This document shows, in pieces, positions 15,001 to 53,253 of a stretch of 64,000 bases of DNA. Each line of letters begins with the position of its first letter. The stretch's first letter is position 1. The stretch covers positions 14,959 to 78,958 of the forward strand of contig JBDRCZ010000029.1 of assembly GCA_043821285.1 (NCBI GenBank). Direction: 5' to 3'. Source of the stretch: Candidatus Omnitrophota bacterium (GTDB lineage Bacteria; Omnitrophota; Gorgyraeia; B26-G9; JBDRCZ01). The notes beneath the pieces are model-generated. The model was given only the letters and a program-made list of their open reading frames with translations, searched no databases and was not told the origin of the DNA. Made by a program: the position numbers and the translations under genes.

Positions 15001-15002
15001 AT
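1..15002 (-). CDS. giant multidomain secreted protein, 5' complete, 3' end beyond window (at least 5,000 aa). Order from N-terminus: signal peptide; ~33-aa helical repeats; C39-like peptidase domain (Ser at the Cys position); beta-rich repeats; Gly-rich hydrophobic/tandem-repeat region; SF2 DExH helicase core
   Basis: GGAGG then a 7-nt spacer then ATG at 15000-15002 on the minus strand. N-terminus MNIITKKLWFKFITVLLIQAFLFTNSNFSLAADF is signal-peptide-like. Manual translation of the reverse complement from 15002 down to base 1 met no stop, and the reading frame at base 3 matches the frame set at the ATG. Plus-strand ORFs across this span are all 268 aa or shorter and lie antisense. The minus-strand ORF is absent from the track, as expected if the track lists only frames closed by a stop inside the window. 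Internal motifs: GHWVTLIRIDSNNVTIIDNGEKK (C39 His region, about 13600-13700), VGGGKT (4888-4915), DEFH (4524-4535), QGIGRNRR (3536-3560). Confidence 0.8.
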   Translation of the reverse strand, partial: MNIITKKLWFKFITVLLIQAFLFTNSNFSLAADFRYLQGQRDLLDELTKNTPRVKTEQIDITQTAYSPLNTLSLPQAGSESKIARDYAAGIGSNLSFIKESIKGMGAAGYDLTTMITLLKKSGNSARDVAITALKQGYFADEIYEALVSAGYSEHEAESLISRPVREQTREDREKLSLLQEEAAKREIIEQHRDKVLPEIGKVGVKPEQNIEEQKQQEAFVMMHALIKLDYRQEALVLKMFQQGYTDSEIITSFAQMGKGLVEIAALLKSANRSATDIIAAIKEAKLPFSNYQIYRTLLNADYSDQEIILALKSLMVSAEDVLKIATQLDRSMVTIAQAMISAKYSASEIVSSFISKAVNWAKDAVINIINCAVNALAALLNIQGKDTDKQRLAYELILQDILAEGEVVIRGQDVFTSMYALKMIATKYQVNLDGYEMDLESLIKTNRPVIIHFEGHWVTLIRIDSNNVTIIDNGEKKILTTKEFNRLWDGKVLSDQAKGNSRKLTQQEMQITAGANAGEDAWDYAKQQGLSDEEAGYVARAAALDEIERGGGHLYDDDDSNDNGGGSATIPVADTAGYAGDQAWDATMRQLINQGMDPNSQQAQDIARAAAKGAFMNAAQNGAYISPYDAVNDTAQLAAIASGSFVPRETVRAVVAAQINTNVNQGQNLQRAIATVQQNLNDTTYRNTLISNINLVNNIILSLPVNLQTDFRNAPLTIQQNGNVMFHVNNNNTNPNLLQSTIINPSGQITATVYRNRATNQWEKMITPTQTWIYDHSDPAVIKIDVYYGDSNTLPISMTEYQDAQTERTIKRVDHEKGTTSVFDWSQEGVVAINVFRGDEVTGRCIIVDVRDANDINRRLKLIDHEQGTISTFDYSNPEFIVMNVTGAKWMTYHLDPEDGMAFYAKDHKSGADIYFNKDGSGRQVLNGVTVYFDTKGKMIGGDTTGNEVDPEQVAKNKAKWAAAMAEHSGQTTGDTTWGTGIDDPSLPGATDNASDTGTTDANTAPQTSWWDNFLNGAASAANNFLNLFNNPQQPPSPQENIFVWDNLNKEAQSPLALPNIDLTQVTLDPLLDGARNFVDLFNVPVASEDTLAWSPEEPSFLDIGAMLFAPLTETTIDTDTWDLGYISEDDSIGYIPVTMSAAQVDIPGWEGLKNLFMGPSSLTYELDNMGYIPLLDDETLNNSYFTAGKSSEAPANQSKLSLDEQVSFIHTLNGVTGVVGGIMAQLPQIFGPTNPQTAAPIDPNTGMPAVQNAYLQQTKPPNLPELTIPGLNNLMNFFNQKKEEITNRYDIIQTEDGRVEIKGLDTNDPLVNILYGLRQKLEPLTSNLFTNFPLLQQEQNRISDLQTKLYPTAAEDGPGALELVCGLGPIGEALHNLGLALPKPVKDLMELANEATDNLWKLAIGSGTEDLAREAYEKPQGIAQAWYNLTESAQKVLEGASAAITDAWDKVWGFAEEEGGRDIAELWKDAREKIPVVAGTIDENTGRYITQGEKAGAYAPELDDLTSPDTFLLINIELRGEVEERYKAAIANGDTRNSTTYKKALDELDTLDPTQGIIVLKKAECGDAPAQPGSFWVMHIDIESPLISYDVQKIKFNANSALSYMGLLDETTPEIFSRGRLAELLDAARPAIEVLREECQTRKMIKENMPKTYQSIEELMKQEQNYADVLAQYKDDPTVRALIQEQDDAHFADVNLAKASLETYEALFDVRKINGQVQDAIATYWNSDENKYNNAAVDNYMNKSKQYNDKVNELKTNYGNTYAVWQDLQHARTMYDVRLNLYIDNPGFDLSSEELVRFTPEQLQARSQVVIDYKSARDAYSNKMQELYTNNPTLYNFIQDIQLLADIGAILQAGIEKRIRESAVGTNDTGDYFGGVGEKASLNQQKDRVYVELLQQLAKQGIDIDKFVGMNESDVYIDPRINSDGDNPVAYISSPGEVTPAHVDRVRDISPAAILEKIKDPDARNTAAMIINSNGYAQRIQTLDQNIVLAKARMDFAMTRMQLTHNPMSFVIPLVLPNKGDVLDFRGYSVLDWVDLTTTVPLLFVGGGLLKGGTLLAKGGTLLAKGGTKLTGKFSLAARFAEKLEPIATKIAPVASRVGAASSMGVTAVAAANAASFVVNNRQFLSFEQNIAIFATTTLSVLGLSGANVLLTQTASQGLKGIGLHSLRAGLNLGTVFGNVDMLVNNVLAQQMFSQGEDKGFLGALELSAKSYFGWDYETDDQGRINKDAGFHFDPLNVHTYTKGFIGGFILGGLLGVFGGVANVSQAATAAMSAANPAVSQVRLARVYHLGTTAYQGISNSTRLSRVYRLGESAYKGIYSGTLNSRVIGGLTVASLGGFGNIAWSYLTGGLNASSTPGEFVAAFAKGAFLGILFKWAISPQGMEFVKGIGGHVRDYSRVETAELQTGLLRRSKTPFTGDGINQLALDALEGAIKWPFVSMVMNMASPVWDTGIHVLETGADRIVGRFTGNQELINSSWQFKIGDEYTWFREGTEEQGYLPLDWGSFFTANRAISWFAAAKEGKFMGPMIKVMMRHSDEILSKSPQALTRAKAGEGAYNKARAFIGRPMARIEGSLARGMAANNSFLSIASGLVLEAKSLTFVSGFVTGIERGLQSVRRAGAYADVVSGALTAADIQAAGGFEQALARYSGMAFSEGERFALGWALLFMKPNLNRLNAELLTVREADGKINSEKTVKNFATVRKYGSLREALRQGADLEMQVLERVGELVPVVADYLREQGFVEQQTDMITQHFSRGNLATVGRDIRLGLEYLSEYAADGKKDNLQKFLAHSIWLAEGKPEGRSDIHWELAGKALAGDSSNAEIIFRNSLRRESLGVENSFGAELIKGVNSLNLSELGNLIRAHNEIKPLSDTLREKLGKEVQLVGDQDARRLLDKDVQIGDQVLVEVKLPSGERAPLRVELTEALRMQASMQVFEPYRLEGNITEGLMEVYRINPKDTKYVRHLVDYVQEHRYNARGLEKRLSAEGAETLTQTQRDYYQKQQEYQQAYLKGETQQQLALRQQSISQSLDRVNLEILKDINALIGENPQGFSEATIIGGQALLERNIKQGLTSEKLSTRNISTYIIDAYIRQLDRVADAEISNLIDRVKTARQELEHSPLIREKNELLNKIDNLRDKRRQLAERRDSLENGTGIEAFDNSVRLIDKQIERLNQGINELNKQIDRRVEGILGKQEIQLIAGSARMNMGVEMLIKLYPELEIVSGMRKMGKEIEAVVQGLESGEIEVFVDKETGKVQLQGAEGEIITEFNRDILVEGKISKDAVQERVREITGRGEKMVEGLTGLVLRIVFEKAHADLIEAKKLELKKQGRDVTKEELTGLLDVERSTAQIKMVVELLKENSVYQAVGGGKTLGFIMEMLVRGEIAKALGKSLNQLLVVKTGEAEQTVLAGDKAHGGKGSIKLQELVDIFGYELKDGNKYYTERNEQGLVDVLLSPDKIVVVDQTRLGFLSLSKNQRLCDALAMQDVVRFDEFHIPFSSKVTYITSETSLLLEKEFIEAAFHAKKALDTIFQKEIGVPEKGKIGRAQDIAEARKEEHAYVYRDRGEYCLNGKALEIINSHNIKERTAKAYFDARFAEKQETYDVKDKEIKPVENGNIAEDRVFSDRYFIAALYAKESANGPDIVDRNKLFYSKSSSQSTVAEVLGMFGRQASVLGASGTLETVELMHMLHLGKGVAKITPSTYKDVVTRGFASEPAIIRNIIREIVSSRRNGRGVLILVKDPVMYELVRKFLNDNLGETIELINTSASEKKVGDLANDAQNRIILSNVKGATGIDYIGVVDLVIADGHNWTRSELYQGIGRNRRNVAEGLRRVFYLKGALREKTASGVRLQELKRMQVTYGREVKDQAKELIRNAELMQSEELSAALVHHIREAAYSRGVIEPVKHMMRLATSEQKRDSLEAELRAILDKKDTAEVNLRLSHHARNAEEIIEQTIRGVASSSRELFDLIAKGDYGKAVKSRAALLRDIAESILTSEGYQKIQARRDISFREAVNIREITAVAKHRRFLDRILSEEISHANDVSQNRTVVHVIQQIDQARRKGGEARLTLAEKAKLFKNFDRIVLSNGTRGSPELLSRVAVFLPNDSPVTQVLEDLALQGVSLNTPQQAQTILDFISENIINSSAFADYDTQDKEEVIDFVLGMLNPEVSYDNLIIAATVYNFLTDEAKQEVEESSLLSQTFLSQPEEIAAAMLKPKVYKAPIESWQKRRQVKKDGFALSRVQQFAFTNTLGLSKKAVEQSGQRMSFVEFEARAEALLTQQNPAIATSANVEALAYTLLKLEAAGRQQEGAGLSWAGFKTARTQSAQVAVLGMEDNLRGHRLFAADKQNERAKLNAKRAELNAEIASAWKSGDFQRAIMLSQQIRNKGEKSWLDEVWDKIKGSFVRKLGTDILSLALPLGSLAIILGLVSMPISIPIISSIFSAGSSLPFPMLALSLLSTPLSFGWQAKKMYKYYVQGEAAISVDTLLNQTSKNLGVLPVLNELNLPEEYASRIEALITKQNAAAESKAGPEDNDGETENEPLTLADLGNDQIAQTIARLINPASPSIERLKVRDEQLAGFADFIEQSNLDQVSGTGKDSLKEQLKNRITEARQLPNLLISEHQFENLINELNQYTHQAALDSLDQVVADAKGRIKQYKKDVQEHNDSPQQRQELLGDLLTALVNNQMITEQEKNAFINNPDQKNLAIKPEYKKVHNLLIELSQQPDPAAYLEKIANADDAEAEQMLNLLVELGLRPQGINFDKRVLRVLIADLKEAMQKADQQLEKILNSGLRDPYIKKYARAMRNSTLAHFANNAFDENDQKQENPYQVRLNTLTGYASLTVDELRRDLEQDPEREIIVMTIRNGRVVRSKKERVFKDLEAWLNWRIEGLAQTLSDSDLTVQGRDWVEAEQEFYQAGRERLQEIGVEQPILDQSFNQAREEATAFKNEITNLVEGLIKQHFSMLSDGLKGQLKGEILKALRTVTLSGENSRKARKSDQAA
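8796..8860 (-). repeat. in-frame 21-nt tandem repeat (about 2.5 units) encoding (LLAKGGT)n within the giant gene
   Basis: accacccttagcaagtaaagt / gccgcctttagcaagcaaagt / accgcctttt... on the plus strand. Confidence 0.7.
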
Positions 15003-15022
15003 AATATAGCCTCCAAAAAAAC

Positions 15023-15045
15023 GGTTTTGTAAAATACTTAACCAC
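15023..15045 (-). promoter_or_regulatory. conserved leader motif GTGGTTAAGTATTTTACAAAACC (minus-strand sense), 21 nt upstream of the giant-gene ATG
   Basis: Near-identical motif found at 41624-41646 (upstream of clpC) and 42947-42969 (upstream of mcsB). Each copy sits 21-26 nt 5' of the start codon. Confidence 0.45.
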
Positions 15046-15087
15046 AAAAGTCACAGAGTTACATAAGAATAGAATAGTTATAGAATG

Positions 15088-16788: not shown

Positions 16789-16810
16789 AAAAACTAAACA
16801 AAATAATACA

Positions 16811-16958: not shown

Positions 16959-16960
16959 AA

Positions 16961-17049
16961 AATTTCCTCAAGCCTAACTATCATTATCTCAAGATTACCG
17001 GGTATTATGTCAAGCTAATCAGACTATGCAATACCGGAAATTTTTTATG
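16961..17049 (+). repeat. repeat family D copy 2, overlapping the 3' end of the ROK gene
   Basis: aatttcctcaagcctaactatcattatctcaagattaccgggtattatgtcaagc... aligns to 15948-16036. Confidence 0.5.
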
Positions 17050-18298
17050 CGTTGATAAATATTTCTCTGATGACTAAACTTGCTGCCCCCAAGGCCACGG
17101 CATTTTCACCAAGACGCGAAGGAACAATTTTAACCATGCTCGCCGGTTCTTCAAATGCCATCCTTCTTACCATCCGTCTAATCGGCTCAAGTAAGAGATC
17201 CCCGGCCTGCTCCATCCCCCCGCCAATAACAACTATTTCCGGATTAAATAAGTTGATGAGATACGCCGTCCTGATCCCTAAGTTAAGTCCGGCTTCATCA
17301 ATAATCTCACTGGCGAGTTTATCGCCCTGACGCGCGGCTTCAATAACAACACTACCGTTAATTTTATCTAAGTTATTGCCAACAAGTTCACGGATTTTTG
17401 ACTCCTGATCGCCTTTAGAAAGCCTCTTGCGTGCTTCATCACTAATCCCTAAATCCACCCCCCAAGGTTTAAATAACCCCTCCAGACCTTTGGACCAGGC
17501 TGCATCCTTATTCGTATCTCCGGTAGAATTTAGCTGCAGTTCCCCGGCACTTCCGCCCGCACCGCAATAAATCTCTCCTTTAATAATAATCCCGCAGCCA
17601 ACATCTGAATACATATAAAGTATGTTTTCGATTTCTGCATCTAAGCCGATACGTTTCTCGCCAAACGCCGCCACCGTGGCATCATTGCCAATAAATGTCG
17701 GTATACCAAATTCTCTCTCAATCAATGCCTTAATCGAGGCATAACTTGCTGCGGTTTTTCCGCGTTTGGAATCAGTATCCCGGACCGTACCGGCCTTAGC
17801 ATCAATAACTCCGCACAGGCCAATACCCAGCCCTTTTATCTTCTTTGCCTCAACCTGAAATTTTTCCATGACCTCATAGACAAGTTCTATTGCCTTTGTT
17901 ACTACCTCCTCCATTGAGTCCTTTGGACGCGGCTTTTTAATCTTAATTATCATGTTTAAGGACAAATCCGTAAGTACCGCAATAAGATGCTGCGGGCCAA
18001 TATCAATGCCAATAACAAAACAGTTCTTTGAGTTTAGCTCGACTAAGGTCGGTTTACGTCCACCACTGGACACATCCAGCCCTTTTTCAATAATTAAGTC
18101 TTTTTTAATAAAATTATTCGCATAATTGGAAACCGTAACAATATTATACTTGGTAATGCGTGAAATTTCGGTCCGGGTAACCGGGCCATAACGTCTAATC
18201 ACCTCTAAAATATCTAAATTCTTCCTCTCCCGGTCCGACAATACCTGATCCTTGAATAACGCCTGCCGCATATTTCCCCTCCTCAATGAGCCCGCCAA
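17045..18298 (-). CDS. ROK family transcriptional regulator (NagC/Mlc/XylR-like)
   Basis: N-terminal wHTH (LEVIRRYGPVTRTEISRITKYNIVTVSNYANNFI) followed by a ROK sugar-kinase-like domain with Gly-rich segments (GIDIGPQH, GCGIIIKGEIYCGAGGSAGE). Confidence 0.85.
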   Translation of the reverse strand: MAGSLRRGNMRQALFKDQVLSDRERKNLDILEVIRRYGPVTRTEISRITKYNIVTVSNYANNFIKKDLIIEKGLDVSSGGRKPTLVELNSKNCFVIGIDIGPQHLIAVLTDLSLNMIIKIKKPRPKDSMEEVVTKAIELVYEVMEKFQVEAKKIKGLGIGLCGVIDAKAGTVRDTDSKRGKTAASYASIKALIEREFGIPTFIGNDATVAAFGEKRIGLDAEIENILYMYSDVGCGIIIKGEIYCGAGGSAGELQLNSTGDTNKDAAWSKGLEGLFKPWGVDLGISDEARKRLSKGDQESKIRELVGNNLDKINGSVVIEAARQGDKLASEIIDEAGLNLGIRTAYLINLFNPEIVVIGGGMEQAGDLLLEPIRRMVRRMAFEEPASMVKIVPSRLGENAVALGAASLVIREIFINA

Positions 18299-18642
18299 AA
18301 AACATGGCGGGCGAATTGATCCCGCAGCTTAAGGAGAAATTGTCGAAGAGAATTTCCCCTTGTCTAAGCAAGGGATCTTATTAAGATTATTCCTTAAATG
18401 AGCAGACAATTTACGGAGTGTCAGCTCCGTAAATTGCAGGACTACGTCCGTCTGCAAATTTAATTCCTGCCCGCCAATCCTTGTGGCGGGCGCCAATTCC
18501 ACCACAAAGCGCTGACGGATCTTCATCTTTGTGGCGGATAAGCTTATTTTTGCGCAGCAAAAATAAAAATTAATTCTTTTTAAAAGATACTTTTTAAATT
18601 TTTTTAACTTGTGTAATTATGATAACACAATTATAAATTAGT

Positions 18643-18672
18643 TGTCAAGCGTTATCCGTACAAAATATAATA
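18643..18672 (+). promoter_or_regulatory. near-consensus sigma70 promoter (TTGTCA, 18 nt, TATAAT) pointing into a family A repeat with no plus-strand CDS for about 680 bp
   Basis: ttgtcaagcgttatccgtacaaaatataat read directly. The next plus-strand CDS starts at 19355. Confidence 0.4.
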
Positions 18673-18693
18673 GTTGTACTTCTTTCACTCGCA

Positions 18694-18840
18694 ATAAAAA
18701 AATTCCTTCGGAATCTTTTTATCCATTTAAAAACCTTTCGTGTTAAAACCTTCCCTTAACAATGAATTAAATATACCAATCTATACCCCAATTCCCTTGT
18801 TATCCACAGATTGAAAATTTTATTGTTTCCTATACGTAAA
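18694..18840 (+). repeat. interspersed repeat family A copy
   Basis: About 90% identical to 16811-16958, including ttatccacagattgaaaat. Confidence 0.8.
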
Positions 18841-18942
18841 TAAAAATAGATGTCCGCCTTCTCTAATAAACCTGCATCCATGAGAACTGATATATCTAAG
18901 CAATTCTTTCCTTTTCATATACTTATTTGCTCTTCTTGAAAA

Positions 18943-18991
18943 TTAGCCCCGGGAGAAAATATCAACAGGCTCTGTTAAAAAACAATGTACC
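18943..18991 (+). repeat. short repeat family E copy 1
   Basis: ttagccccgggagaaaatatcaacaggctctgttaaaaaacaatgtacc, compared with 21932-21985 ggattaaccccgaaagaaaatatcaaccggttttgttacaaaaaaaatgtgcac. Confidence 0.45.
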
Positions 18992-19228
18992 AACTTAAAT
19001 TAGTATAAAACATATTTACTGCAATATTGTTTAATTGATATTCTGACGGAGCAAACAGGATAAAAAAAGACCGCGAGCAGAAAAAAATGACGAATGAAGA
19101 ACGCCAAAAGTAAAAACGCAAAAGAATAAAATTATCACACAAATCACACGAATTACACGAATAAATTAGTAATGAGTATTACGCATAAAAAATAAATAAA
19201 AAATTTTACCACAGAAAAAATACAAAAC

Positions 19229-19318
19229 CAGGCAGGATTAACGGGATAACCCTGATAAAAGGTAATCAGGATAATCATGTAAATCCTGTCAAAAAAATAT
19301 TTATTTGAATTTATTTGT
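19229..19318 (+). repeat. repeat family F copy 1 (caggatt...aatcctg inverted repeat, then ttaatcatgtaaatcctgtcaaaaaaatatttatttgaatt)
   Basis: Aligns to 27641-27735. Lies immediately upstream of the plus-strand ATPase gene. Confidence 0.5.
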
Positions 19319-19354
19319 ACTTTTTGCATTTTCGCTTGCATTTAGCAGCACTAT

Positions 19355-20521
19355 ATGGTATCCTCGAGATGTATGGTAAATAGAACCTTTTGGCAAAAGC
19401 AGATTGAAGCATTATGGAAAGAAAAATCTATCATCTGGCTCTCCGGCATCCGTAGAGCAGGAAAGACCTTTCTTTCTAAAAGTCTTCCGAATATCGAATA
19501 TTTTGACTGCGAATTACCCCGAACTCGCAGAATGTTAGAAGACCCTGAAGGATTTTTGGAAACGTTTAAAGAGAAACGCATTATTCTTGATGAAATTCAT
19601 CGTCTTAAGAATCCTTCAGAACTTCTAAAAATTGCTGCTGACTATTATCCTTCTATACAAGTACTGGCAACCGGCTCCTCTACTTTAGGGGCATCAAGAA
19701 AATTTAAGGACACCCTTACCGGCAGAAAACGCTCCCTTTGGCTAACACCAATGAATCTCAACGACCTCGCTGATTTTAATAATATAAATTTATCTCACCG
19801 CTTTTTACACGGAGGGCTCCCCCCGTTTTTTATGGCGCAAAAATTGCCGGAAAAAGATTTCCAAGAATGGATTGACGCTTACTGGGCAAAAGACATCCAA
19901 GAATTATTTCGCTTGGAACGCCGTTATTCCTTCCAAAGATTTTTTGAACTGCTTATGGCTCAAAGCGGCGGCATTTTTGAGGCTACAAGATTTGCAAAAT
20001 TGTGTGAAGTAAGCCGTACAACAATAACTAATTACCTTAAAGTACTCGAAGCAACCTTTGTTGCTCATGTGATCCGCCCATTCAGTTCCCACCGTCCAAC
20101 AGAAATTGTTTTAGCACCGAAGATCTACGGTTTTGATACTGGGTTCGTCTGTTACCACCGTGGTATAACCACATTGCGTTCTGAAGACATGGGACTCCTC
20201 TGGGAACATATTGTATTAAATGAACTTCAGGCAGAATTACAAACACGCAATATTTACTATTGGCGTGATAAACGCGGTCACGAGCTTGATTTTATTCTTA
20301 TACAAAAAAATAAAATTCCCCTGGCGATTGAATGTAAAAGCACATTAGCAGAAAACAGTATTCGAACACGAAACATCCAAGCCTTCTTAACCCAATACCC
20401 ACAAGCAAAAATATTTTATGTCTGTCCTGACGTCAAACGAGTCTATCAGATAAAACTAAAAACCACAAAAATCACAGTAACCAATCTTCCAACACTGCTC
20501 AAAGCACTAAACAACGCATAA
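19355..20521 (+). CDS. AAA+ ATPase of the COG1373 type (AAA_14 N-domain with DUF4143 C-domain)
   Basis: Walker A GIRRAGKTFL and Walker B ILDEIH. Length of about 390 aa and C-terminal region are typical of this family. Only sizeable plus-strand gene in the window. True start may be the Met at 19373. Confidence 0.75.
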   Translation: MVSSRCMVNRTFWQKQIEALWKEKSIIWLSGIRRAGKTFLSKSLPNIEYFDCELPRTRRMLEDPEGFLETFKEKRIILDEIHRLKNPSELLKIAADYYPSIQVLATGSSTLGASRKFKDTLTGRKRSLWLTPMNLNDLADFNNINLSHRFLHGGLPPFFMAQKLPEKDFQEWIDAYWAKDIQELFRLERRYSFQRFFELLMAQSGGIFEATRFAKLCEVSRTTITNYLKVLEATFVAHVIRPFSSHRPTEIVLAPKIYGFDTGFVCYHRGITTLRSEDMGLLWEHIVLNELQAELQTRNIYYWRDKRGHELDFILIQKNKIPLAIECKSTLAENSIRTRNIQAFLTQYPQAKIFYVCPDVKRVYQIKLKTTKITVTNLPTLLKALNNA

Positions 20522-20524
20522 TAA

Positions 20525-20692
20525 GTTTTATTTATAGAAAAATCAATTAAATTAGATAATTACTACATACCAACAAGACATCCTGATGCCTTACCGGGCA
20601 TATTACCAGAAGGGCTGCCCGGCAAAGATGATGCCGAGGAGGCAATATCGATTTTAGAAGAAGTAAAAGTTTTTGTGAGCAAAATTCGTTAG
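20525..20692 (+). pseudogene. C-terminal remnant (about 55 codons, no start) of a HEPN-domain gene
   Basis: In-frame translation gives VLFIEKSIKLDNYYIPTRHPDALPGILPEGLPGKDDAEEAISILEEVKVFVSKIR. This resembles the C-terminal consensus of HEPN (PF05168-like: Y-IP-RYPDA-P...EEA...A). It begins right after a stop codon abutting the ATPase gene. Confidence 0.45.
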
Positions 20693-20709
20693 TCAATTAT
20701 TCATGTAAA

Positions 20710-21804
20710 TTATCGATTCTTTAATATCCATTTTTTCCAAAATGGATCCTCGAGTTCAATCTTCCCGCCATTTATTTTTATTAACGTCCCTAAGGCAATT
20801 AATTTACTTACCACGCTGCCCGCGGTACTCGCTGACTTGATCCCATATTTTCTTATAAATTCCTGTGCCGTAGGATGAGAATTACCTGAAACAATCCCAA
20901 TAATAACCTTTCGTTCAGTATTAGTCAAACTGTTCCACCATCTCGAATAATCTGCATGATGTTCTGTTATAATTTGGTCAATAGCCTTATTTATTACCCC
21001 CTTTGTTAAAATCATTTTTTCACTTAGTATGTAGATCTCATGGCACAATTGCTGAGTATAATAAGGGTGGCAATTAGTAAAGCTTAGAATATCGTTTACA
21101 ATTTCACGAGCATCTATTTTTTGCGAAGAAAATCTTTTTATGACAAACTCTAAAAATTCCGCCTTAGGAATTTTATCCAAGTTAATATGACGGCCAAATT
21201 TATAGAAAGGGTTCTTTTTGTTTTGAAATATTTCCCGAATCATGCTCTCTTGACTTCCGATGAAAATATATGTTATGTTTTGATGATATTGAAATACCCC
21301 GCGCATCTTTCGCTCAAGCATCGGAGAAATCCGGCGTATTTCCTGAAATTCATCAAAAACAATTACAATCTGTTTTTTTATGTTTCTGGCAATCGTTTCC
21401 GGAAGTTGAAGGCTATCTGAGAGAAGAGCAGCAATGTTTCTTTTCTCTGTACTGAAGGACACGGAGATTTCATTCGTTTTTGGCTGAATCTGAATATAGG
21501 GCTGTATCTTTAGGCTGGTTAGGTAATGTTTTATCTTTTCAAACTTACTTAATGATAAGGCATTTCGAACATAATAATTAGCCAAGTCTACCTCATCGGC
21601 AATCAACTCCATATTAATCCTGAACCATTTCATCCCGCTGGCTTTCATTGCTTCATTTATAAGACTGCTTTTACCATAGCGGCGTGGGCTCATAAGCACA
21701 ATATGCTGGCCCGCCTTTAGCTCCGCAGCTATTTCTTTTATTTCTTTATCACGATTGGTGAAGTATGCCCCTGTTACGACATTACCAAATCTAAAGGGAT
21801 TCAT
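20710..21804 (-). CDS. AAA+ ATPase of the archaeal ATPase / DUF234 type (COG1672-like)
   Basis: Walker A SPRRYGKSSL and Walker B VIVFDEFQ. About 360 aa with a DUF234-like C-terminus. Confidence 0.7.
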   Translation of the reverse strand: MNPFRFGNVVTGAYFTNRDKEIKEIAAELKAGQHIVLMSPRRYGKSSLINEAMKASGMKWFRINMELIADEVDLANYYVRNALSLSKFEKIKHYLTSLKIQPYIQIQPKTNEISVSFSTEKRNIAALLSDSLQLPETIARNIKKQIVIVFDEFQEIRRISPMLERKMRGVFQYHQNITYIFIGSQESMIREIFQNKKNPFYKFGRHINLDKIPKAEFLEFVIKRFSSQKIDAREIVNDILSFTNCHPYYTQQLCHEIYILSEKMILTKGVINKAIDQIITEHHADYSRWWNSLTNTERKVIIGIVSGNSHPTAQEFIRKYGIKSASTAGSVVSKLIALGTLIKINGGKIELEDPFWKKWILKNR

Positions 21805-21839
21805 TTTAAGCCTCCTGTTTTATCATTACGTTAAATCTC

Positions 21840-21859
21840 GTTACGAAAAATATCGTAAC
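21840..21859. promoter_or_regulatory. perfect 7-bp inverted repeat GTTACGA-aaaata-TCGTAAC about 35-55 nt upstream of the DUF234 ATPase start; candidate operator
   Basis: Read directly. The half-site motif ttacg also occurs just upstream (cattacgttaaatctcgttacg). Confidence 0.35.
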
Positions 21860-21931
21860 ACACATCTCTCAATTTGTCAACGCAATAATATATTCGCGTA
21901 AGTGTTTAAGTTTCACATGAGTAATCAAACA

Positions 21932-21985
21932 GGATTAACCCCGAAAGAAAATATCAACCGGTTTTGTTACAAAAAAAATGTGCAC
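21932..21985 (+). repeat. short repeat family E copy 2
   Basis: See 18943-18991. Confidence 0.45.
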
Positions 21986-21999
21986 TTATTGCTGTCTCT

Positions 22000-22212
22000 T
22001 CATGCATTCAAGGCAAGTTTATGTGCCTTTTGTTCAACTGTGTAAATTAAATCTTGAATGGTATCTACTTCTTGCTCTTCAAAATATGCTTCCCCACACT
22101 GTTCACATATCCAAGCAGGAACACTATCGAAGGTTACGTGACAGCCATTTTTATCAATATGAAGCGGCGTAATTCCTTGTTTCATGATACCATGGCAATG
22201 AATACATTTCAT
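22000..22212 (-). CDS. YgiT-type zinc-finger protein (MqsA N-terminal-like)
   Basis: MKCIHCHGIMKQGITPLHIDKNGCHVTFDSVPAWICEQCGEAYF matches the YgiT pattern of two Cys pairs with NG..V and VPA..C..CGE. Confidence 0.6.
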   Translation of the reverse strand: MKCIHCHGIMKQGITPLHIDKNGCHVTFDSVPAWICEQCGEAYFEEQEVDTIQDLIYTVEQKAHKLALNA

Positions 22213-22646
22213 TTTTTTATCCTCACTTTATAGTCCTCAGACCATTCCTTAGGGTCTGAGATATACGCTGTAATTATAGCAAATTTTGGCACTGCATATC
22301 AAGTTCTTATTGCTTAAACTCTTTTAAAAACGTTGTCTTATAAACTTGCCTTGCTACAAAAATAATATCTATTTCTGGTTGGCTAATTTCTTCTTGTACT
22401 TTTTTAGAATAAGGCGGTTAATTATCATGTTGACCAACATTACCTATTCGGTAAAAAAAGTTAATATTTATTTTTCCAATCTGCTTACTTTTAGAGATTT
22501 TGGGAATGTTAGAATCGGGAATTTTGAATTTGCAATTTAAATCAGAAATTGTTAAACCCGAATATTTGCCGATAATCTTTGCTTCTGGCTGGGCTGGGTT
22601 GGGTTTTAGGGGTGAGAGTACGTGTAAAAAATATAGCGTTTGTACT

Positions 22647-25600
22647 TTATATTGCTTGGTCTATTGCGAGTACGCGTTGTCTTTGTTCGACAGTTAACAC
22701 ATGGGAAGAAGATATAATTTTGACTGGTAGTGTCCATCGCCTGATTATTACTTCTCCTTCTAAAGGCTCTTGTTCATCGCCTGCAGCCAGATCTTTTTCC
22801 CGCGAATATCCCGAATATCTATCTTCCATTGCCTCAAGAAGAGCCTCAAAATCTCTCTCACGTTCTGTTCTATTTTGTAAATACGTTAAGCTAAATACAA
22901 GCATCTCCCTAAAAGCAGGAATCTGCTCTCCTCGATCCTGTATCGCCATGTTATCAAAAAATCTGTGGATATTTTCTATGGCTGCTCTTGCCGCTTCATG
23001 TCGTCCTCGTCTACTTTTCCCCTTTTCTGCTTCATCATCTTCAAAAACTGCGTTATAATGATGCACAAATTTACGTCGCCACTTTTGTTTTTCTTCTTCC
23101 CTCCCTATTGTTGCAAAGAAAACATATGTGCTTAAATCTGCGATAAATTCTGCAATTTCCAACGCTTGCTCAAAGGAAAAAGTATCACAAAACAAATCTT
23201 CAATATTATGGCCTAATTCATGGGCAAAAACACCAAATAAGTCCCCACCCCAGCTATACTCGCGAATAATATCCCGGCGGCCTATATCAAAATCAGCGTT
23301 CGCAGTACCCCCAAAAAAACTAAATAAAACATCAAGTAAAGCAGTTTTATTCATAATTTTATTTACTATATCATGCATCTGCTCTCTACTTATCTCAATT
23401 TCCAGCTCTAAGCCCTTAAAAATAATAATCCAAGTTGCTATATAATATGCCTTTACTGTCTCATTGAGCCAAATATTATCATCTGGTAATAAATCGCTTG
23501 CCTGCATAGTACGTTTGGCATTTAATAAATTGATAGCTAAATCTAAAACTCTATCTTCCATATCCTCATCAGGTAATAAACCATATACATAAATTCTAAG
23601 TTCACCAGGAAGATCTTCATTGTCAAATATCGTCCTTACCACTTGTTCATATGAATCTCCCTCTATGATATTTTTGTCAATTTGTAAATACTTTGCGAAT
23701 CTCTCTAATACAAACCCCAGTAATTCTTTAGATTTTAATTCTCTACAAATCTCTACAAGTCTATTTAGGACAAGTATGTTACCTCTTTTAGATAAATTTT
23801 GATTGTCAATTATTTTCTTTAATAGAGTAATTGCCTCGGACTCTTCTCTTCTGGCTAACCTTACAACAATATCTATAGCTCCTTCATCGTCCCTATGATC
23901 TAAAAACCATGCTTCTAAGCCCGCAGGCATAAGCTCTCTTAACAAGCTACGGCAAAAAACTTTTGTTTCTTCAGAAGATCCAGAACTCTCTGATATGTCC
24001 ATCAAAAGCTCAACAGCACCATATTTCCCTGAAGACCTGCCCTCTGCAATTTCTTTTAAAAGATTAAGCGCTGGTTCATTTCCTTTTTCTGCCAGTTTTC
24101 TAATTTCCTGATATGCTTCACGCTTATCATTTTCAAGAGCAGGTTTTAATATATTTAGAACAAAGGGTAATAATAAAGATATCTTATCTTTTATATACGA
24201 GTTATCAGAAACAAACCCATCTTCTATAAGTTTTCTAACTACATTATATATTGCTGTATTATGTTTACTAACCGCATCATCTATTCTTACATTATCTCCT
24301 TCTCTAACTATCTCATTCATATTTAGTTCTAATACCGAGATAACAGAAGGTAAAGTTGCAACTGCTAAATCCTTAGCTTGAGCTGTGACCCGGGGGAAAT
24401 CACCTCTAACATAAGGGGCATCTCCTTGTTCTTCAAAGATAACATCTGGACTAACCGCAATATCAACAATAGTATTAATTGCCGTATGTTTTTCCCTTGA
24501 ATCTCCTAACGCTATTTCTTGCAAAATATCCAATCCTTCTTTAATGCCTCGTCTCGCTAATTGTCTTACTACGTTGCCTCCTTCATAAACACCATCTTCA
24601 AAATCAGATTTTAATGATTCTAATATTACAGGTGTCCAAGGCGCTGTAATTTCCAAATCCTCGATTAATATCGCTCTTGCCATACCATATAACATTGTTT
24701 CGATATGACTATCATCTATTGAGGATACTAATTGATAAAATCGTTCTGTTGTTTCTGTTGGGGCAGGGCTATCTTCAAGAGAAATAAAAATACTCACTAC
24801 AACCCACTGAGGTAATCTTAACTCTGCTAATCTAGACTTAAGTCTAGTAAACCATGCTGGAAAATCAGTACTACTATCTCCATTATTCGTCAGTGGAGTT
24901 AAGTTAAACAAAGGAGCAATGATGCCGTTGTACAAAGCATGCAATCCTCCACCCCAGATGAAGATTGATATTTCCGGAAAACGATGTGCGGATGCAAATA
25001 CTAAACCTGTGATAAGTGCAGCGGCAACAGATCGGTGTAGGAATTGTCTCCATGTCTGCTCGTACCATGTTAAATCTGTTTCTGTTGGTATCCCATGAGT
25101 TAAAGTTACTAACAATGCACTTATACCCACAATTATCGGTATGACAGGAATAAAACTACTAAGCCCCATAGCAATACCCGGCAGGAAAATAAGTTCAAGC
25201 CAAGGCGCAATAAAAGTTGAAAATTCCCGAGTATCTGTCCCTTGCCTGGCTCGGTCAAAAGCCACTTTCCAAGGCATCCTTAGAATTTGCGCGGGTTGTT
25301 GGATGTATGAAATATAATGATGTGCCGCAAGACTAGATGTTGCTACTAAAACAGCAGGCTTGTAAGGTAATAAAACCTTTAATATTTCACAAATAAAAGA
25401 ACCAAGCCAAATACCCCCCGCAAAAACATAAGTCCACAAGGGAAGTGTAAGATTAGCCTTTTGCCCCTTATGCCCAGTAGCAGAATTCTGATCGATAATT
25501 TCTTCTTCACTAAAATATTCCCTAAGTTCTTCTAAAGAAAGCAGATCCCCTATATCATTTATTCTTCCCAACACCCAACAATCCTCAAAATATTCCCTGT

Positions 25601-26525
25601 GTTTTTTTGAAGAAAGTACCTCTTCATTATCTTTTCCTTCAATCAGCCAATAAAACTCATTTAGTATTTCACACAGTTTTTCTTGAGCATCAGCAAGCCC
25701 CCTTATCCCCTCTGCACCAATATCTACAAAGTACACATGCGGTTTGCCATTTTTAAATCTTACCCTAAAATTCCATGCAGGAATATCCCAAAAATAAATA
25801 CCTTCTCCACTATCATCCGGCTTTGCAAGTTCATCCATTATTTTCAGAATTTGTCTCCCAACTTCTTTGTAAACTTCTTCACTCGTTACCTTGTACATGG
25901 CAGAATCCAATTCTTCTTCTCCTACAGGGGATGCACAAACGTAATATCTACCGCTGAATTCGTCTTTATCTATAAATAATTCAGGAACATGTTCCTTAAG
26001 AATTTCTGAGTGTTTTTGTCTTTCTGCAATACGTTGGGCTAAATTATAATTCTCGTTGCCTAAACGTAAGCAGTATTCTTTATGGTCTTCATCTTCGACT
26101 CTGTAAACATGTTGAAATTTATCATGATAAATAATTCTAAATATTTCACCATTTATAAAAAATACTCTATTAATTACAAATTGATTATTCTTATAATAAA
26201 CATGAAAATCAGGTAATTCTTTATTAACCCTGTATTCCTTCCTCGCAAGCCCAATTGCTTCTTCCGCTTCAACCCCTATTACAACTCCTTTATCTGTTTT
26301 ATGGCATCTTACAATCTTCGGATTTATATATTGCTGTAATATTACAGGCATTGCCTCAATAACAAGAGCAACATCCTGTCCATCAAGTGCTAACGGAGGG
26401 GCAAGGTGGGTATGCAAGCCTTTTAGGTTACCTCCAGCGGCCAAGGAGATGTCCATGCATAAAAAGGCATTCACCAATATTATCGCGATTAGTTTAAACC
26501 AAATTGTACGTGTCAAATTATTCAT
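22647..26525 (-). CDS. large (1,292 aa) signal-peptide protein with a polytopic TM block carrying CPBP/Abi-like FxxxH and HxxxN motifs, HEAT-like repeats and a C-terminal HExxH (AHELGHN) zincin-like motif
   Basis: N-terminal hydrophobic signal (IWFKLIAIILVNAFLCMDISLAAGG). TM-rich residues about 370-560 contain FASAH and GGGLHALYN. HEAT-like helical repeats span about residues 650-1000. HELGH falls at plus 23222-23236. Confidence 0.75.
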   Translation of the reverse strand: MNNLTRTIWFKLIAIILVNAFLCMDISLAAGGNLKGLHTHLAPPLALDGQDVALVIEAMPVILQQYINPKIVRCHKTDKGVVIGVEAEEAIGLARKEYRVNKELPDFHVYYKNNQFVINRVFFINGEIFRIIYHDKFQHVYRVEDEDHKEYCLRLGNENYNLAQRIAERQKHSEILKEHVPELFIDKDEFSGRYYVCASPVGEEELDSAMYKVTSEEVYKEVGRQILKIMDELAKPDDSGEGIYFWDIPAWNFRVRFKNGKPHVYFVDIGAEGIRGLADAQEKLCEILNEFYWLIEGKDNEEVLSSKKHREYFEDCWVLGRINDIGDLLSLEELREYFSEEEIIDQNSATGHKGQKANLTLPLWTYVFAGGIWLGSFICEILKVLLPYKPAVLVATSSLAAHHYISYIQQPAQILRMPWKVAFDRARQGTDTREFSTFIAPWLELIFLPGIAMGLSSFIPVIPIIVGISALLVTLTHGIPTETDLTWYEQTWRQFLHRSVAAALITGLVFASAHRFPEISIFIWGGGLHALYNGIIAPLFNLTPLTNNGDSSTDFPAWFTRLKSRLAELRLPQWVVVSIFISLEDSPAPTETTERFYQLVSSIDDSHIETMLYGMARAILIEDLEITAPWTPVILESLKSDFEDGVYEGGNVVRQLARRGIKEGLDILQEIALGDSREKHTAINTIVDIAVSPDVIFEEQGDAPYVRGDFPRVTAQAKDLAVATLPSVISVLELNMNEIVREGDNVRIDDAVSKHNTAIYNVVRKLIEDGFVSDNSYIKDKISLLLPFVLNILKPALENDKREAYQEIRKLAEKGNEPALNLLKEIAEGRSSGKYGAVELLMDISESSGSSEETKVFCRSLLRELMPAGLEAWFLDHRDDEGAIDIVVRLARREESEAITLLKKIIDNQNLSKRGNILVLNRLVEICRELKSKELLGFVLERFAKYLQIDKNIIEGDSYEQVVRTIFDNEDLPGELRIYVYGLLPDEDMEDRVLDLAINLLNAKRTMQASDLLPDDNIWLNETVKAYYIATWIIIFKGLELEIEISREQMHDIVNKIMNKTALLDVLFSFFGGTANADFDIGRRDIIREYSWGGDLFGVFAHELGHNIEDLFCDTFSFEQALEIAEFIADLSTYVFFATIGREEEKQKWRRKFVHHYNAVFEDDEAEKGKSRRGRHEAARAAIENIHRFFDNMAIQDRGEQIPAFREMLVFSLTYLQNRTERERDFEALLEAMEDRYSGYSREKDLAAGDEQEPLEGEVIIRRWTLPVKIISSSHVLTVEQRQRVLAIDQAI

Positions 26526-26540
26526 ATGTTATGTACTATT

Positions 26541-26665
26541 AGTTAATTCCAAATGACAAATTTCAAAATCCAAATTAATCTTCAAATAACTCAATCCCAA
26601 AAATCCATGCCCGAGGCGGGTGGAGGAAAAATCAAACATCAAAATGACAATGTAAAATTCAAATA
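26541..26665 (+). repeat. MITE-like family C element (partial/variant) just upstream of the 1,292-aa gene
   Basis: aattccaaatgacaaatttcaaaatccaaat ... cccgaggcgggtggagg ... aaatgacaatgtaaaattcaaat. Confidence 0.45.
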
Positions 26666-26773
26666 TTTTTTCTTTGATTTCTTTCAGTTTTTCTTCGCGA
26701 TCTTCGTGGGCTTCGTGGTTAAAACATCACATTTTTTAAGCTTGAACTATTATGACATAGCTTTGAAGTTTTT

Positions 26774-27043
26774 TTAAATACTGCGATAGGCGGATGGCCG
26801 GAGGGTGATTAAAAGGACCCCAATGCGCTTATCTCTCTTATCTATTTCATAAATTATACGATAATCACCTGCACGGTAACGATATAAAATCTTTTTTACT
26901 TTTAATCGCTTAATGTTTTGTCCCTGAAAAGGATTATTTTCTAAATCTTCAAAACATCTGTTTAGGCGATTGGCTAATTTAGACGAGCAATTTTGATAAA
27001 ATTTCAATGCCTGCGGCAGCAAAATTACCTTAAATTTATCCAC
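26774..27043 (-). CDS. type II toxin of the RelE/ParE family
   Basis: 89 aa, ending RYRAGDYRIIYEIDKRDKRIGVLLITLRP, a typical RelE/ParE C-terminus. Overlaps the upstream antitoxin gene by 8 nt. Confidence 0.75.
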   Translation of the reverse strand: MDKFKVILLPQALKFYQNCSSKLANRLNRCFEDLENNPFQGQNIKRLKVKKILYRYRAGDYRIIYEIDKRDKRIGVLLITLRPSAYRSI

Positions 27044-27269
27044 GCTTTACTTTTCTCCAGTTAGCACCCTTGCCCTTATAAAAAAGTTTGCTCTCCTTCT
27101 CAATGTGAGCTATTTCTTCGCTGGTAAGCGTCTCATCAACTTTTTCTAAAAGCAACTCGCGCACTAAAGCAGAAATAGATTTGTATTCCCTATCGCATAG
27201 ACATTTTATCTTCTCATATAATGAAGCCGGTAACCTTATCAATAACTCTTTATTCATAGTTATAGCCAT
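27036..27269 (-). CDS. antitoxin, likely ribbon-helix-helix/CopG-like
   Basis: 77 aa, LIRLPASLYEKIKCLCDREYKSISALVRELL. Gene order antitoxin then toxin. Confidence 0.6.
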   Translation of the reverse strand: MAITMNKELLIRLPASLYEKIKCLCDREYKSISALVRELLLEKVDETLTSEEIAHIEKESKLFYKGKGANWRKVKRG

Positions 27270-27313
27270 TTTTGTCTCCTTATAAATTTCATTACAATTT
27301 ATCTTCCACTATA

Positions 27314-27342
27314 AGTATATCATAATGATATATAATTGTCAA
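27314..27342 (-). promoter_or_regulatory. TA operon promoter (-35 TTGACA, 17 nt, -10 TATACT) with an operator-like palindrome ATATCATTATGATAT in the spacer
   Basis: Minus-strand read: ttgacaattatatatcattatgatatacttatagtgg, about 45 nt upstream of the antitoxin ATG. Confidence 0.5.
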
Positions 27343-27640
27343 GTTTAGATTTCAATACCAGTTGTCATACAGGACGTTCAGACGTCTGTATAAAAATACA
27401 ATTTTGAAATGTTAAAAATTAAAACAATAGTTCATCCTTTTAAAACATATAATCCTTAAACCACAAAGCACCAAGCGCACAAAGTTTTTGTATTCATTCT
27501 TCGTGCCCTTTGTGTCCTTCGTGGTAAATAATTTTCTATTTTTTCTTTTGTCTGAACTGGTACTTCTTTGCGTATCGGATTAATTTATTTTTATTATTTT
27601 CGTCAGATAACGTAAAGCTCGCAGAGAAAATATAAAATTA

Positions 27641-27735
27641 GACAGGATTGACAAGATAAAAAAGGATAAAACTAATCGTGTTAATCATGTAAATCCTGTC
27701 AAAGAAAAAATATTTGAATTTTACATTGTCATTTT
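27641..27735 (+). repeat. repeat family F copy 2
   Basis: gacaggattgacaagataaaaaaggataaaactaatcgtgttaatcatgtaaatcctgtcaaagaaaaaatatttgaatt. Confidence 0.5.
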
Positions 27736-27780
27736 CTTGCCTACCGGCAGGCAGGGATTTTTGATGTTTTCCACCAGAGG

Positions 27781-27838
27781 CGGACCCGCCTCCGGCGGGA
27801 ATTTTGGGATTAAGTTATTAAATGATTCATTTGGATTT
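27781..27838 (+). repeat. MITE-like family C arm downstream of cysS
   Basis: aaatgattcatttggattttgtcatttgacatttgag. Confidence 0.45.
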
Positions 27839-27869
27839 TGTCATTTGACATTTGAGATTAAATAAAGCC

Positions 27870-29312
27870 TTACTGTTTCTTTCTCCGCCAAATTGTGCCC
27901 TGTTTTGTGTCTTCTAAAATTACGCCTAATTCCTCTAACTCGTCTCTTATTTTGTCCGATGTTTTAAAATCTTTATTCTTGCGTGCCGCATCCCTTTGGG
28001 AAATTAAAACTTTTATCTTATATTTAATCTCATCCGGTAATATCTCTTCCTTTATATCACTAAGAAAAAGCCCCAGTACATTACCTAAGCTGATAATTGT
28101 TTCTTTGGCTGATTTTATAAATGCTTTTAAATCTTCCGGGGGGTCAACCGCGGCATCGATCTTTTTGTTTATTAATGTAACCATGTCAAATAATACAGAT
28201 AATGCTTCTGCAGCGTTAAAATCATCATCCATTACTTGTTCAAATCGCTGCGTTAACTCAGCTAACTCCTTAAATTCTTTTTTCCGGTGCTCAAGGTTAC
28301 CGGCAATACGCTCAACCCGTTGAAATAATATATAAAACCTTTCTCTGGCCCGTTCAGCCTCAATAAGTTTTTCCTCTGTATAATTCAGGGGACTCGCATA
28401 ATGTGTGCCTAAAAACATGATTTTTAATGCTTCGGGATTATGTCTTTTAATAATTTTGCCAAGGGTTATAAAATTTCCTAATGATTTTGACATCTTTTCT
28501 CCGTTTACGGAAAGTAATCCATTATGTATCCAAAAGCCGGCAAATTTTTTTCCAGTAAATGCCTCGCTCTGGGCAATTTCATTTTCATGATGCGGAAAGA
28601 TTAAATCAAGACCCCCGCCATGAATGTCAAAACTCTCACCCAAATATTTTGTGCTCATTACCGAACACTCAATGTGCCAGCCGGGCCGGCCCCGTCCCCA
28701 TGGACTGTTCCATGAAGGTTCATTTGGCCTTGTCTTTTTCCAAAGGGCAAAATCTAATGGATCGTTTTTCTTTTCACCGGGATGTACCCTTGCCCCGCTG
28801 TGCAGTTCGTCAATGCTCTGGTGCGAGAGTTTGCCATATTGCTTGAACTTTTTTACCTCAAAGTAAACATCGCCTTCCACGGCATATGCATACCCTTTAT
28901 CAATTAGTCCAGAAATCATTTCAATCATATCTTTAATATGTGCGGTAGCCTTTGGCTCAACATCCGGCGGCATAATCTGCATCATGGTCATATCATGATA
29001 ATAAGCGTTAAGATAAAAATCCGCTACGGCCTGACAGGCCTGATTTAAATCCACCACTCCCCCGGCTTGATCCTGTGCTTTAGTTATAATTTTATCATCA
29101 ACATCCGTAATATTACGCACAAATTTTACCTGGTACTTCCTATACAATAAATAACGCCGGATAATATCAAAGGTAAATGCCGCGCGCAGATGCCCAAGAT
29201 GCGCCTCGTCATATACCGTAGGCCCGCAGACATATATCCCAACCTCCTCCATGGTAAGCGGCTGGAATTCTTCTTTTTTTCTGGTTAAGGTGTTGTAGAT
29301 ATGTAGCGCCAT
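27870..29312 (-). CDS. cysS: cysteine--tRNA ligase
   Basis: HIGH-type motif (AHLGHL region), KMSKS, zinc-binding Cys residues; 480 aa. Confidence 0.93.
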   Translation of the reverse strand: MALHIYNTLTRKKEEFQPLTMEEVGIYVCGPTVYDEAHLGHLRAAFTFDIIRRYLLYRKYQVKFVRNITDVDDKIITKAQDQAGGVVDLNQACQAVADFYLNAYYHDMTMMQIMPPDVEPKATAHIKDMIEMISGLIDKGYAYAVEGDVYFEVKKFKQYGKLSHQSIDELHSGARVHPGEKKNDPLDFALWKKTRPNEPSWNSPWGRGRPGWHIECSVMSTKYLGESFDIHGGGLDLIFPHHENEIAQSEAFTGKKFAGFWIHNGLLSVNGEKMSKSLGNFITLGKIIKRHNPEALKIMFLGTHYASPLNYTEEKLIEAERARERFYILFQRVERIAGNLEHRKKEFKELAELTQRFEQVMDDDFNAAEALSVLFDMVTLINKKIDAAVDPPEDLKAFIKSAKETIISLGNVLGLFLSDIKEEILPDEIKYKIKVLISQRDAARKNKDFKTSDKIRDELEELGVILEDTKQGTIWRRKKQ

Positions 29313-53170: not shown

Positions 53171-53253
53171 GTAAGGTTAACAATTGCCATAAAAATAAAT
53201 TACTACACGGATGGTAATTTAGCATTTACCTTTTCTTTTTCAAGAAAAGGTAA

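Follow-up and report, generated by a model that had tools for sequence, protein, structure and literature searches.

A likely insertion hotspot with mixed accessory genes between cysS and a ROK gene of an Omnitrophota bacterium

PDC-S01 has been described as ranking fourth in frequency among defences across prokaryotes, yet it is a candidate awaiting validation (PMC12988326), and in the only test found, part of a cold-seep study, one representative failed to protect E. coli B against T4, T5 or T7 (bioRxiv 10.1101/2024.09.26.614923). DUF4143 and DUF234 have both been classed as PD-(D/E)XK domains (PMC3424549). Within the phylum Omnitrophota, heavy lateral transfer of toxin-antitoxin and restriction-modification cargo has been reported (bioRxiv 10.64898/2026.05.20.726742), and its giant proteins have been portrayed as mosaics that span the membrane and combine divergent enzyme domains (bioRxiv 10.1101/2023.11.21.568195). 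Here we describe a locus of a Candidatus Omnitrophota bacterium (contig JBDRCZ010000029.1) in which a DUF4143 ATPase, an ATPase_2 protein, toxin-antitoxin genes and remnants and a large membrane protein lie between cysS and a ROK regulator gene. The whole stretch of DNA that was analysed, 64,000 nucleotides, is called the window. A first-pass annotation of it had marked this locus as an accessory island with defence-type content.

The island, at about 18.66-27.87 kb (Table 1), is probably a variable insertion hotspot between cysS and ROK in which at least five unrelated, apparently self-sufficient units have accreted, some of them now decayed. The candidate units are a PDC-S01-type ATPase, an ATPase_2 cassette, a truncated HEPN gene, an orphan YgiT fragment, a ribbon-helix-helix (RHH)-ParE pair and a 1292-aa protein. 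We regard these as independent because strong promoter-like sites stand ahead of RHH-ParE (TTGACA-17-TATACT at 27342-27314), YgiT (TTGATA-18-TATAAT at 22302-22273) and ATPase_2 (TTGACA-17-TACGAT at 21880-21852), as one also does ahead of ROK (TTGACA-18-TATCAT at 18648-18619), and because the two ATPase genes converge on a pseudogene, the HEPN remnant between them, and occupy differing neighbourhoods elsewhere. Both ATPases keep their catalytic motifs, while the HEPN remnant and the partnerless YgiT represent decay. The island units do not form one machine, and a single new defence system is not evidenced. All of the genes listed in the first-pass annotation were present on re-check, and its description of the content as of defence or toxin-antitoxin type agrees with the PADLOC match of the DUF4143 ATPase to PDC-S01 (1.5e-54) and with one intact ParE/RHH pair. 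Like known defence islands and toxin-antitoxin hotspots, the locus has a variable filling between core anchors, a mixture of candidates and remnants, and an atypical composition; it differs from them in having no recombinase or tRNA gene and in holding a large lineage-specific membrane protein.

Table 1. Features of the cysS-ROK island and its anchors (window coordinates; a dot marks features without strand).
Feature	Coordinates	Strand	Support or content
ROK gene, left anchor, outside island	17045..18298	-	PF00480 3.2e-42
Left AT-rich spacer	18660..19354	.	GC 0.289; D1/D2/D3 18681-18844, D15 18942-18985, D10/D11 19212-19313
AAA_14+DUF4143 ATPase gene	19355-20521	+	PF13635 2.9e-32, PF13173 5.1e-21
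HEPN C-terminal remnant, 55 codons	20525-20689	+	PF05168 positions 74-115/117, 25.2 bits vs cut-off 22, E 1.9e-5
ATPase_2 gene	20710-21804	-	PF01637 49.9 bits vs cut-off 33.2, residues 15-251; 364 aa
ATPase_2 gene with conserved upstream block of ~90 nt	20710..21895	-	Promoter-like site inside block
Orphan YgiT-type zinc finger	22000-22212	-	TIGR03831 37.4 bits vs cut-off 20.2
Non-coding debris upstream of YgiT	22213..22646	-	Translations; no Pfam match
1292-aa open reading frame	22647-26525	-	Hydrophobic segments; HELGH at residue 1102
ParE/RelE-fold toxin	26774-27043	-	PF05016 38.5 bits vs cut-off 23
RHH antitoxin	27036-27269	-	PF01402 23.3 bits vs cut-off 20.5
Right AT-rich spacer	27270..27869	.	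GC 0.310; D10/D11 27622-27723, D5 27818-27859
cysS, right anchor, outside island	27870..29312	-	PF01406 9.5e-129

The 1292-aa protein and both ATPases have counterparts of 100% identity among NCBI proteins, all encoded on a single 123-kb Omnitrophota contig, and exact-sequence searches with cysS and with the annotated 1275-aa protein gave no match. Among 185,579 species representatives the best cysS relatives were only 50-52% identical, leaving no close genome for a synteny comparison. When metagenome contigs were searched with the ROK protein, orthologues at 75-76% identity appeared on two of them, L081 and L082. On L081, cysS (11-1360) is followed after 151 nt by ROK (1512-2741; 75% identity); both genes lie on one strand, and the spacer contains a promoter-like TTGACA...TATACT. 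On L082, ROK is accompanied by a homologue of the small membrane protein encoded beside it in the window and by the start of a giant gene, in the same order as in the window. Based on these two arrangements, the ancestral order would be cysS, ROK, small protein gene and giant gene. Because cysS and ROK of L081 are only 151 nt apart, about 9.2 kb of the window is missing there; this DNA, at about 18.66-27.87 kb, would have been gained in the interval bounded by the ROK promoter region (~18.65 kb) and the stop codon of cysS. The L081 comparison shows that the region is not universal, and it says nothing on variation among close relatives. In addition, no homologue of any island protein was found in 1.34 Mb of sequence around cysS from 80 other genomes, among them four of Omnitrophota. 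The composition of the island is also atypical. Its guanine-plus-cytosine (GC) content is 0.356, compared to 0.410 in the rest of the window, and GC at third codon positions (GC3) is 0.26-0.385 in island genes (0.258 in the 1292-aa gene and 0.35-0.36 in the two ATPase genes), compared to 0.32-0.45 (mostly 0.38-0.45) in the flanking genes checked. The suggestion that the stretch is accessory, and the ROK-to-cysS synteny check proposed with it, are both borne out by this evidence, with L081 as a single distant comparator for the absent filling.

The L081 genes are unequally similar to their window counterparts, ROK being 75% and cysS 46% identical. Such a difference would arise if ROK evolves at an unusually low rate, or if either gene was replaced in one of the lineages.

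The DUF4143 protein is composed of an AAA+ ATPase, a winged-helix region and a PD-(D/E)XK nuclease-type domain, and it matches the PADLOC PDC-S01 model at full length (PDLC04789, 183.5 bits, residues 7-359, profile positions 1-367/375). The PADLOC check that the first-pass annotation had called for thus returned a single-gene candidate. In a 12-sequence alignment drawn from several phyla (mean column identity 72%), Walker A (G31-K37-T38), Walker B (D79-E80) and the residues D312...E326-x-K328 are invariant. More than 8000 homologues were identified. Proteins from Omnitrophota, Actinomycetota, Acidobacteriota, Syntrophus, Krumholzibacteria and other sources are 64-75% identical to the window copy, compared to 45-50% for cysS between phyla, and an identity so far above that of cysS suggests wide lateral spread under strong constraint. 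Relatives in plasmid and phage collections are distant only (<30% identity), and for neither ATPase was a relative of solved structure detectable by sequence.

Six other DUF4143 neighbourhoods were examined. In three of them (L086, L087 and L089), the gene is solitary among housekeeping genes. In L085 it adjoins a type I restriction-modification system with a resolvase; in L084, of Actinomycetota, it lies beside an ATPase_2+DUF234 gene, a nucleotidyltransferase (NT)+HEPN pair and other toxin-antitoxin pairs; and in L083, of Omnitrophota, it lies between holA and rpsT, with a distant ATPase_2 gene ~1 kb off. DNA homology of the gene is restricted to the coding sequence, and no promoter-like site was found ahead of it, unlike the minus-strand genes of the island. 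This ATPase is typical of a known candidate family that is uncharacterised but already catalogued. It shares with PDC-S01 the AAA+ and PD-(D/E)XK architecture, the single-gene organization and the frequent location in defence or toxin-antitoxin neighbourhoods, and no difference is intrinsic to the window copy, which abuts a truncated HEPN gene. Its domain content suggests that such a protein would carry out ATP-driven recognition and cutting of nucleic acid, probably foreign DNA.

The second ATPase had been annotated as a COG1672/DUF234 protein in convergent orientation with the first. The PF01637 ATPase domain and the convergent orientation were confirmed, but the DUF234 domain (PF03008) was not detected: it gave no match at E<=0.01, and it is missing from the precomputed Pfam lists of the homologues as well. 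The size of the protein, 364 aa, compares with 465 aa for the DUF234-bearing protein of L084. Walker A and Walker B are invariant across the alignment. Homologues at 76-87% identity form ~40 protein clusters, of which those with a named source are from Omnitrophota. Five other contexts of the gene, with copies at 79-87% identity, were examined, and its neighbours differ in each; they include uvrA and a CHASE2 cyclase gene (L095), a MerR-like gene and ftsH (L090), TerB and dus (L091/L092), and ligA together with a DUF4143 fragment (L093/L094). An alternative role as a housekeeping gene of the phylum was rejected because of this variation, which is seen in every contig examined. Homology at the DNA level (76-83%) starts at the stop codon or a few bases from it and ends 55-100 nt upstream of the start codon; in the window it is confined to 20706-21895. 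Because of these homology limits and the varying neighbourhoods, ATPase_2 appears to act as a relocating cassette of promoter and gene. Neither a recombinase nor conserved ends that would explain its movement were found.

With COG1672/ATPase_2+DUF234 proteins the window protein has in common the PF01637 domain, the Walker motifs and the proximity of DUF4143 and toxin-antitoxin genes. In contrast to them, it is without DUF234 and belongs to a tight subfamily (76-87% identity; named sources mostly Omnitrophota) that forms a relocating cassette. Its domains suggest an ATP-dependent DNA-binding switch with a layout like that of Orc/Cdc6 proteins.

Three points weigh against a hotspot of independent units. 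First, the empty site is known from a single, distant contig, L081, with cysS only 46% and ROK 75% identical to the window copies. Second, no integrase or transposase (by Pfam) and no tRNA gene marks an entry route into the island. Third, at four independent loci (the window, L083, L084 and L093/L094) a DUF4143 gene and an ATPase_2 gene are no more than ~0.2-1.5 kb apart; this co-location exceeds the expectation for unlinked genes, and some functional or insertional link between the two may exist. That the association is not random follows from the four close loci together with the absence of both families from the 1.34 Mb of control flanks.

The third point leads to a different explanation, according to which the DUF4143 ATPase-nuclease and ATPase_2 form a two-gene defence or abortive-infection module, one protein being the sensor or loader and the other the effector nuclease. 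The adjacency of the families at these loci, in L084 in the company of NT+HEPN and other toxin-antitoxin pairs, their absence from the control flanks and a weak match of the ATPase_2 N-terminus to a PDC-S01 model (3.7e-8) all speak for such a module. The layout, however, varies from locus to locus: the genes are convergent in the window, lie on one strand separated by rpsT in L083, and are divergent in L084. The ATPase_2 of L083 is just 30% identical to the window copy, DUF4143 occurs without ATPase_2 in L085-L087 and L089, and ATPase_2 is solitary in L090, L091 and L095. In the window itself, the HEPN pseudogene separates the two genes and ATPase_2 has its own conserved upstream promoter-like block, while PADLOC treats PDC-S01 as a single-gene candidate. 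We consider a two-gene module unlikely. The spread of the two families also contrasts, DUF4143 being 64-75% identical over many phyla and ATPase_2 76-87% identical with named sources that are mostly Omnitrophota. The compact module pairing both ATPases that the first-pass annotation envisaged is not upheld, since the genes converge around a gene remnant, have different histories and elsewhere are mostly apart or differently arranged. Shared residence in a hotspot accounts for their proximity better than a fixed two-gene system does.

L093 and L094, Omnitrophota contigs that diverge further upstream, carry at 5740-6186 a 148-aa fragment that is DUF4143 only, ~0.8 kb upstream of an 80%-identical ATPase_2. 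This is another decayed DUF4143 gene near ATPase_2.

Among the toxin-antitoxin genes of the island, only RHH-ParE is an intact operon (26774..27269, minus strand). The antitoxin gene comes first and overlaps the toxin gene by 8 nt, the canonical arrangement shared with type II ParE/RelE-RHH systems. The RelE/ParE-RHH pair named in the first-pass annotation is therefore intact, with both domains above their cut-offs. As an addiction module, it probably helps to keep the region in place.

The reported HEPN gene remnant was also recovered, as the C-terminal third of PF05168 between the two ATPase genes. In the six-frame translation it begins one codon past the DUF4143 stop codon in the same frame, and its truncation may have been caused by the arrival of the DUF4143 gene. 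A location of the HEPN remnant upstream of YgiT (22213-22646) was rejected, as there is no Pfam support there and the remnant lies between the ATPases. No nucleotidyltransferase motif that would indicate a partner for HEPN was recognised on reading 18.9-19.35 kb. In contrast to HEPN-MNT systems, the window HEPN thus has just 55 codons and no MNT partner.

YgiT corresponds to the N-terminal domain of MqsA-type antitoxins. The match to TIGR03830 (29.1) is below its cut-off (61.8), and the helix-turn-helix domain is missing. Upstream there is no intact open reading frame (ORF) or Pfam match, hence no MqsR-type toxin gene; the lack of the MqsA helix-turn-helix domain and of an intact upstream toxin gene sets YgiT apart from MqsRA. 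Within the debris (22213..22646, minus strand), a short frame ending in ...FAIITAYISDPKEWSEDYKVRIKK and a stop codon abuts the YgiT start. This frame, with its end ...IITAYISDPKEWSEDYKVRIKK, may represent the end of a toxin gene that was lost, a tentative and unconfirmed reading; the one similarity noted, a loose one, is to the C-terminus of a DUF4258 protein of L084.

The borders of the island had been described as AT-rich and packed with repeats. Both spacers are AT-rich and contain repeats (Table 1), but the repeats are dispersed and not border-specific: the same families also occur between housekeeping genes at 35.7, 44.9, 53.2 and 57.3 kb. Intergenic DNA is AT-rich throughout the window (GC 0.24-0.40), and the borders stand out by length alone. 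Short ORFs in the left spacer (18660..19354) have no Pfam match.

Direct repeats of 102 nt (19212-19313 and 27622-27723; 73% identity), close to both ends of the island, raise the alternative that the whole region arrived at once, as a single integrative mobile element with these repeats as its ends. The absence of the region from L081, a GC content below that of the surroundings and an addiction module at one end would fit such an element. However, the region lacks integrase, recombinase, transposase and tRNA genes, the only tRNA gene of the window being located at 56 kb. Moreover, the D10 repeat core has a third copy at 16290-16330 and the families are dispersed in intergenic DNA, for which reason the 102-nt repeats were rejected as attachment sites. 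The genes differ in phylogenetic spread, each has a separate neighbourhood elsewhere, and the pseudogene remnants favour stepwise gain and decay. A single element is thus highly improbable, and we retain the hotspot with separate units as the preferred reading.

Two other repeats were observed. A dispersed direct repeat of 164 nt (82-91% identity) occurs at 16799-16962, 18681-18844, 53241-53404 and 57317-57480; it flanks ROK on both sides, and its other copies lie between housekeeping genes. A perfect TTATCCACA, the consensus of the DnaA box, is present in three of the copies (3 observed, compared to 0.59 expected), and on the minus strand the repeat has a terminator-like hairpin followed by a T-run. 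A direct repeat of 44 nt with two copies (18942-18985 and 21934-21977; 82% identity) brackets DUF4143, the HEPN remnant and ATPase_2.

The largest gene of the island encodes the 1292-aa protein, which has an N-terminal hydrophobic anchor (residues 4-32), a kinase-like fold (~120-300), a membrane-spanning cluster (~365-560), a helical repeat region and a C-terminal HExxH domain (~970-1240). Neither the whole protein nor any of its four separate parts had a sequence match in Pfam, NCBIfam, PADLOC or the PDB. In an exhaustive HMMER search against 1.84 billion representatives, 16 proteins were identified, including the 1292-aa protein itself; ten relatives share the C-terminal domain, four an N-terminal domain and one part of the membrane region. 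These relatives are 300-6545 aa in length and carry unrelated extra domains (HD, receiver, DUF1152 and sugar isomerase), and the four with a name are all from Omnitrophota.

In the alignment of the C-terminal domain, a W, an E, a K, an M and the HExxH motif (H203, E204 and H207 in alignment numbering) are invariant, and a Glu 19 residues past the motif (E227) is nearly invariant. One homologue (P0009) matches Peptidase_M48 weakly, at 24.7 bits against a cut-off of 20.3, and another (P0003) falls below the cut-off at 18.4 bits. Comparison of the domain profile with the PDB gave weak metalloprotease matches (best E 0.0066), and the structural model of the domain (predicted local distance difference test score, pLDDT, 74) had no fold match, only noise, in a Foldseek search of the PDB. 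For the N-terminal domain, an AlphaFold2 (AF2) model (pLDDT 71.2) gave 670 Foldseek matches to the PDB at E<=1e-3, the best 50 of which are all protein kinases (probability 1.00). L63-R64, D157 and D178-x-G180 are invariant in this domain, while the conserved Lys and the HRD motif are missing; going by the modelled fold, it may be an atypical kinase or a pseudokinase.

The first 30 residues of the 1292-aa protein resemble the N-terminus of the giant ORF to the left of ROK (LTRTIWFKLIAIILVNAFL compared to ITKKLWFKFITVLLIQAFL). This match to the giant ORF speaks for a start of the protein at the ATG at 26525 and not at the annotated, shorter 1275-aa start. The common motif, (L/I)T(R/K)x(I/L)WFK(L/F)I...(N/Q)AFL, lies at 26436-26525 and 14913-15002 on the minus strand and may be a lineage-specific export or anchor signal.

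On these features an alternative can be built in which the 1292-aa protein is the functional core of the island, as a membrane-bound abortive-infection or signalling protease that combines a CPBP/Abi-like domain and a zinc protease with a kinase-like regulator, the toxin-antitoxin genes being accessory. The conservation of HExxH and of the downstream Glu in 11 relatives, the Peptidase_M48 matches of P0009 and P0003, the kinase-like fold and CPBP-like FxxxH and HxxxN motifs in the membrane region, seen by eye only, are in line with this. Several results are not. CPBP/Abi (PF02517) had no Pfam match at E<=1 in residues 355-575, neither the whole protein nor its parts matched a Pfam, PADLOC or NCBIfam family, the C-terminal model is without a fold match, and the kinase-like domain is missing the customary Lys and HRD motif. 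The relatives have several domains and a length of 800-6500 aa, with Omnitrophota as the named sources, and the N-terminal motif common to the giant ORF points to the large surface proteins of the lineage rather than to defence. We consider such a protease core very unlikely.

The 1292-aa protein instead looks like a small member of the Omnitrophota repertoire of large and giant surface proteins. It shares with the giant proteins a membrane cluster, helical repeats and enzyme-like domains of divergent sequence, which reappear in Omnitrophota proteins as long as 6545 aa. It differs from them in that it is far smaller, no SecA-like domain was detected in it, and it lies in a variable region with low GC3. 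The protease-like motifs noted in the first-pass annotation belong to a mosaic membrane protein with named relatives that are all Omnitrophota, and it is not recognisable as a defence protease.

Outside the island, the housekeeping order that the first-pass annotation described as conserved holds for the right flank, clpC-radA-...-ispD-ispF-gltX-cysS, which is common to many phyla. It does not hold to the left of ROK, where a small membrane-protein gene is followed by a stop-free ORF of at least 5016 aa that leaves the window (3..15050, minus strand; probable start near 15002) and is a giant gene of the type reported for Omnitrophota. The small hydrophobic protein gene between ROK and the giant gene (15685-15942, minus strand) is kept in L082 (40% identity) and was assigned to no family. 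A fairly high-GC ORF of 65 codons (18329-18526, minus strand) lies between the ROK start and the best ROK promoter-like site; it matches no Pfam family, and the 151-nt spacer of L081 contains no equivalent of it.

One more far-reaching proposal joins several of these observations. ATPase_2, and possibly the PDC-S01 gene, would be new self-relocating cassettes of promoter and coding sequence, without a recombinase or conserved ends, that spread in Omnitrophota, settle side by side or in toxin-antitoxin loci and cooperate as a nuclease-less sensor and a nuclease effector; separately, the 1292-aa protein would represent a new kinase-like, membrane-spanning and zinc-peptidase-like family tied to giant-protein modules. 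We think it unlikely that this proposal is correct.

For screening, the outcome is negative: the locus offers no compact new two-gene system for cloning, and PDC-S01 has been catalogued before. The relocating ATPase_2 cassette and the mosaic membrane protein stand out as more unusual. The locus flags two very common, uncharacterised ATPase families that relocate as single genes, and it offers a clear case of accessory genes accumulating between two core genes in an uncultured phylum of very small bacteria.

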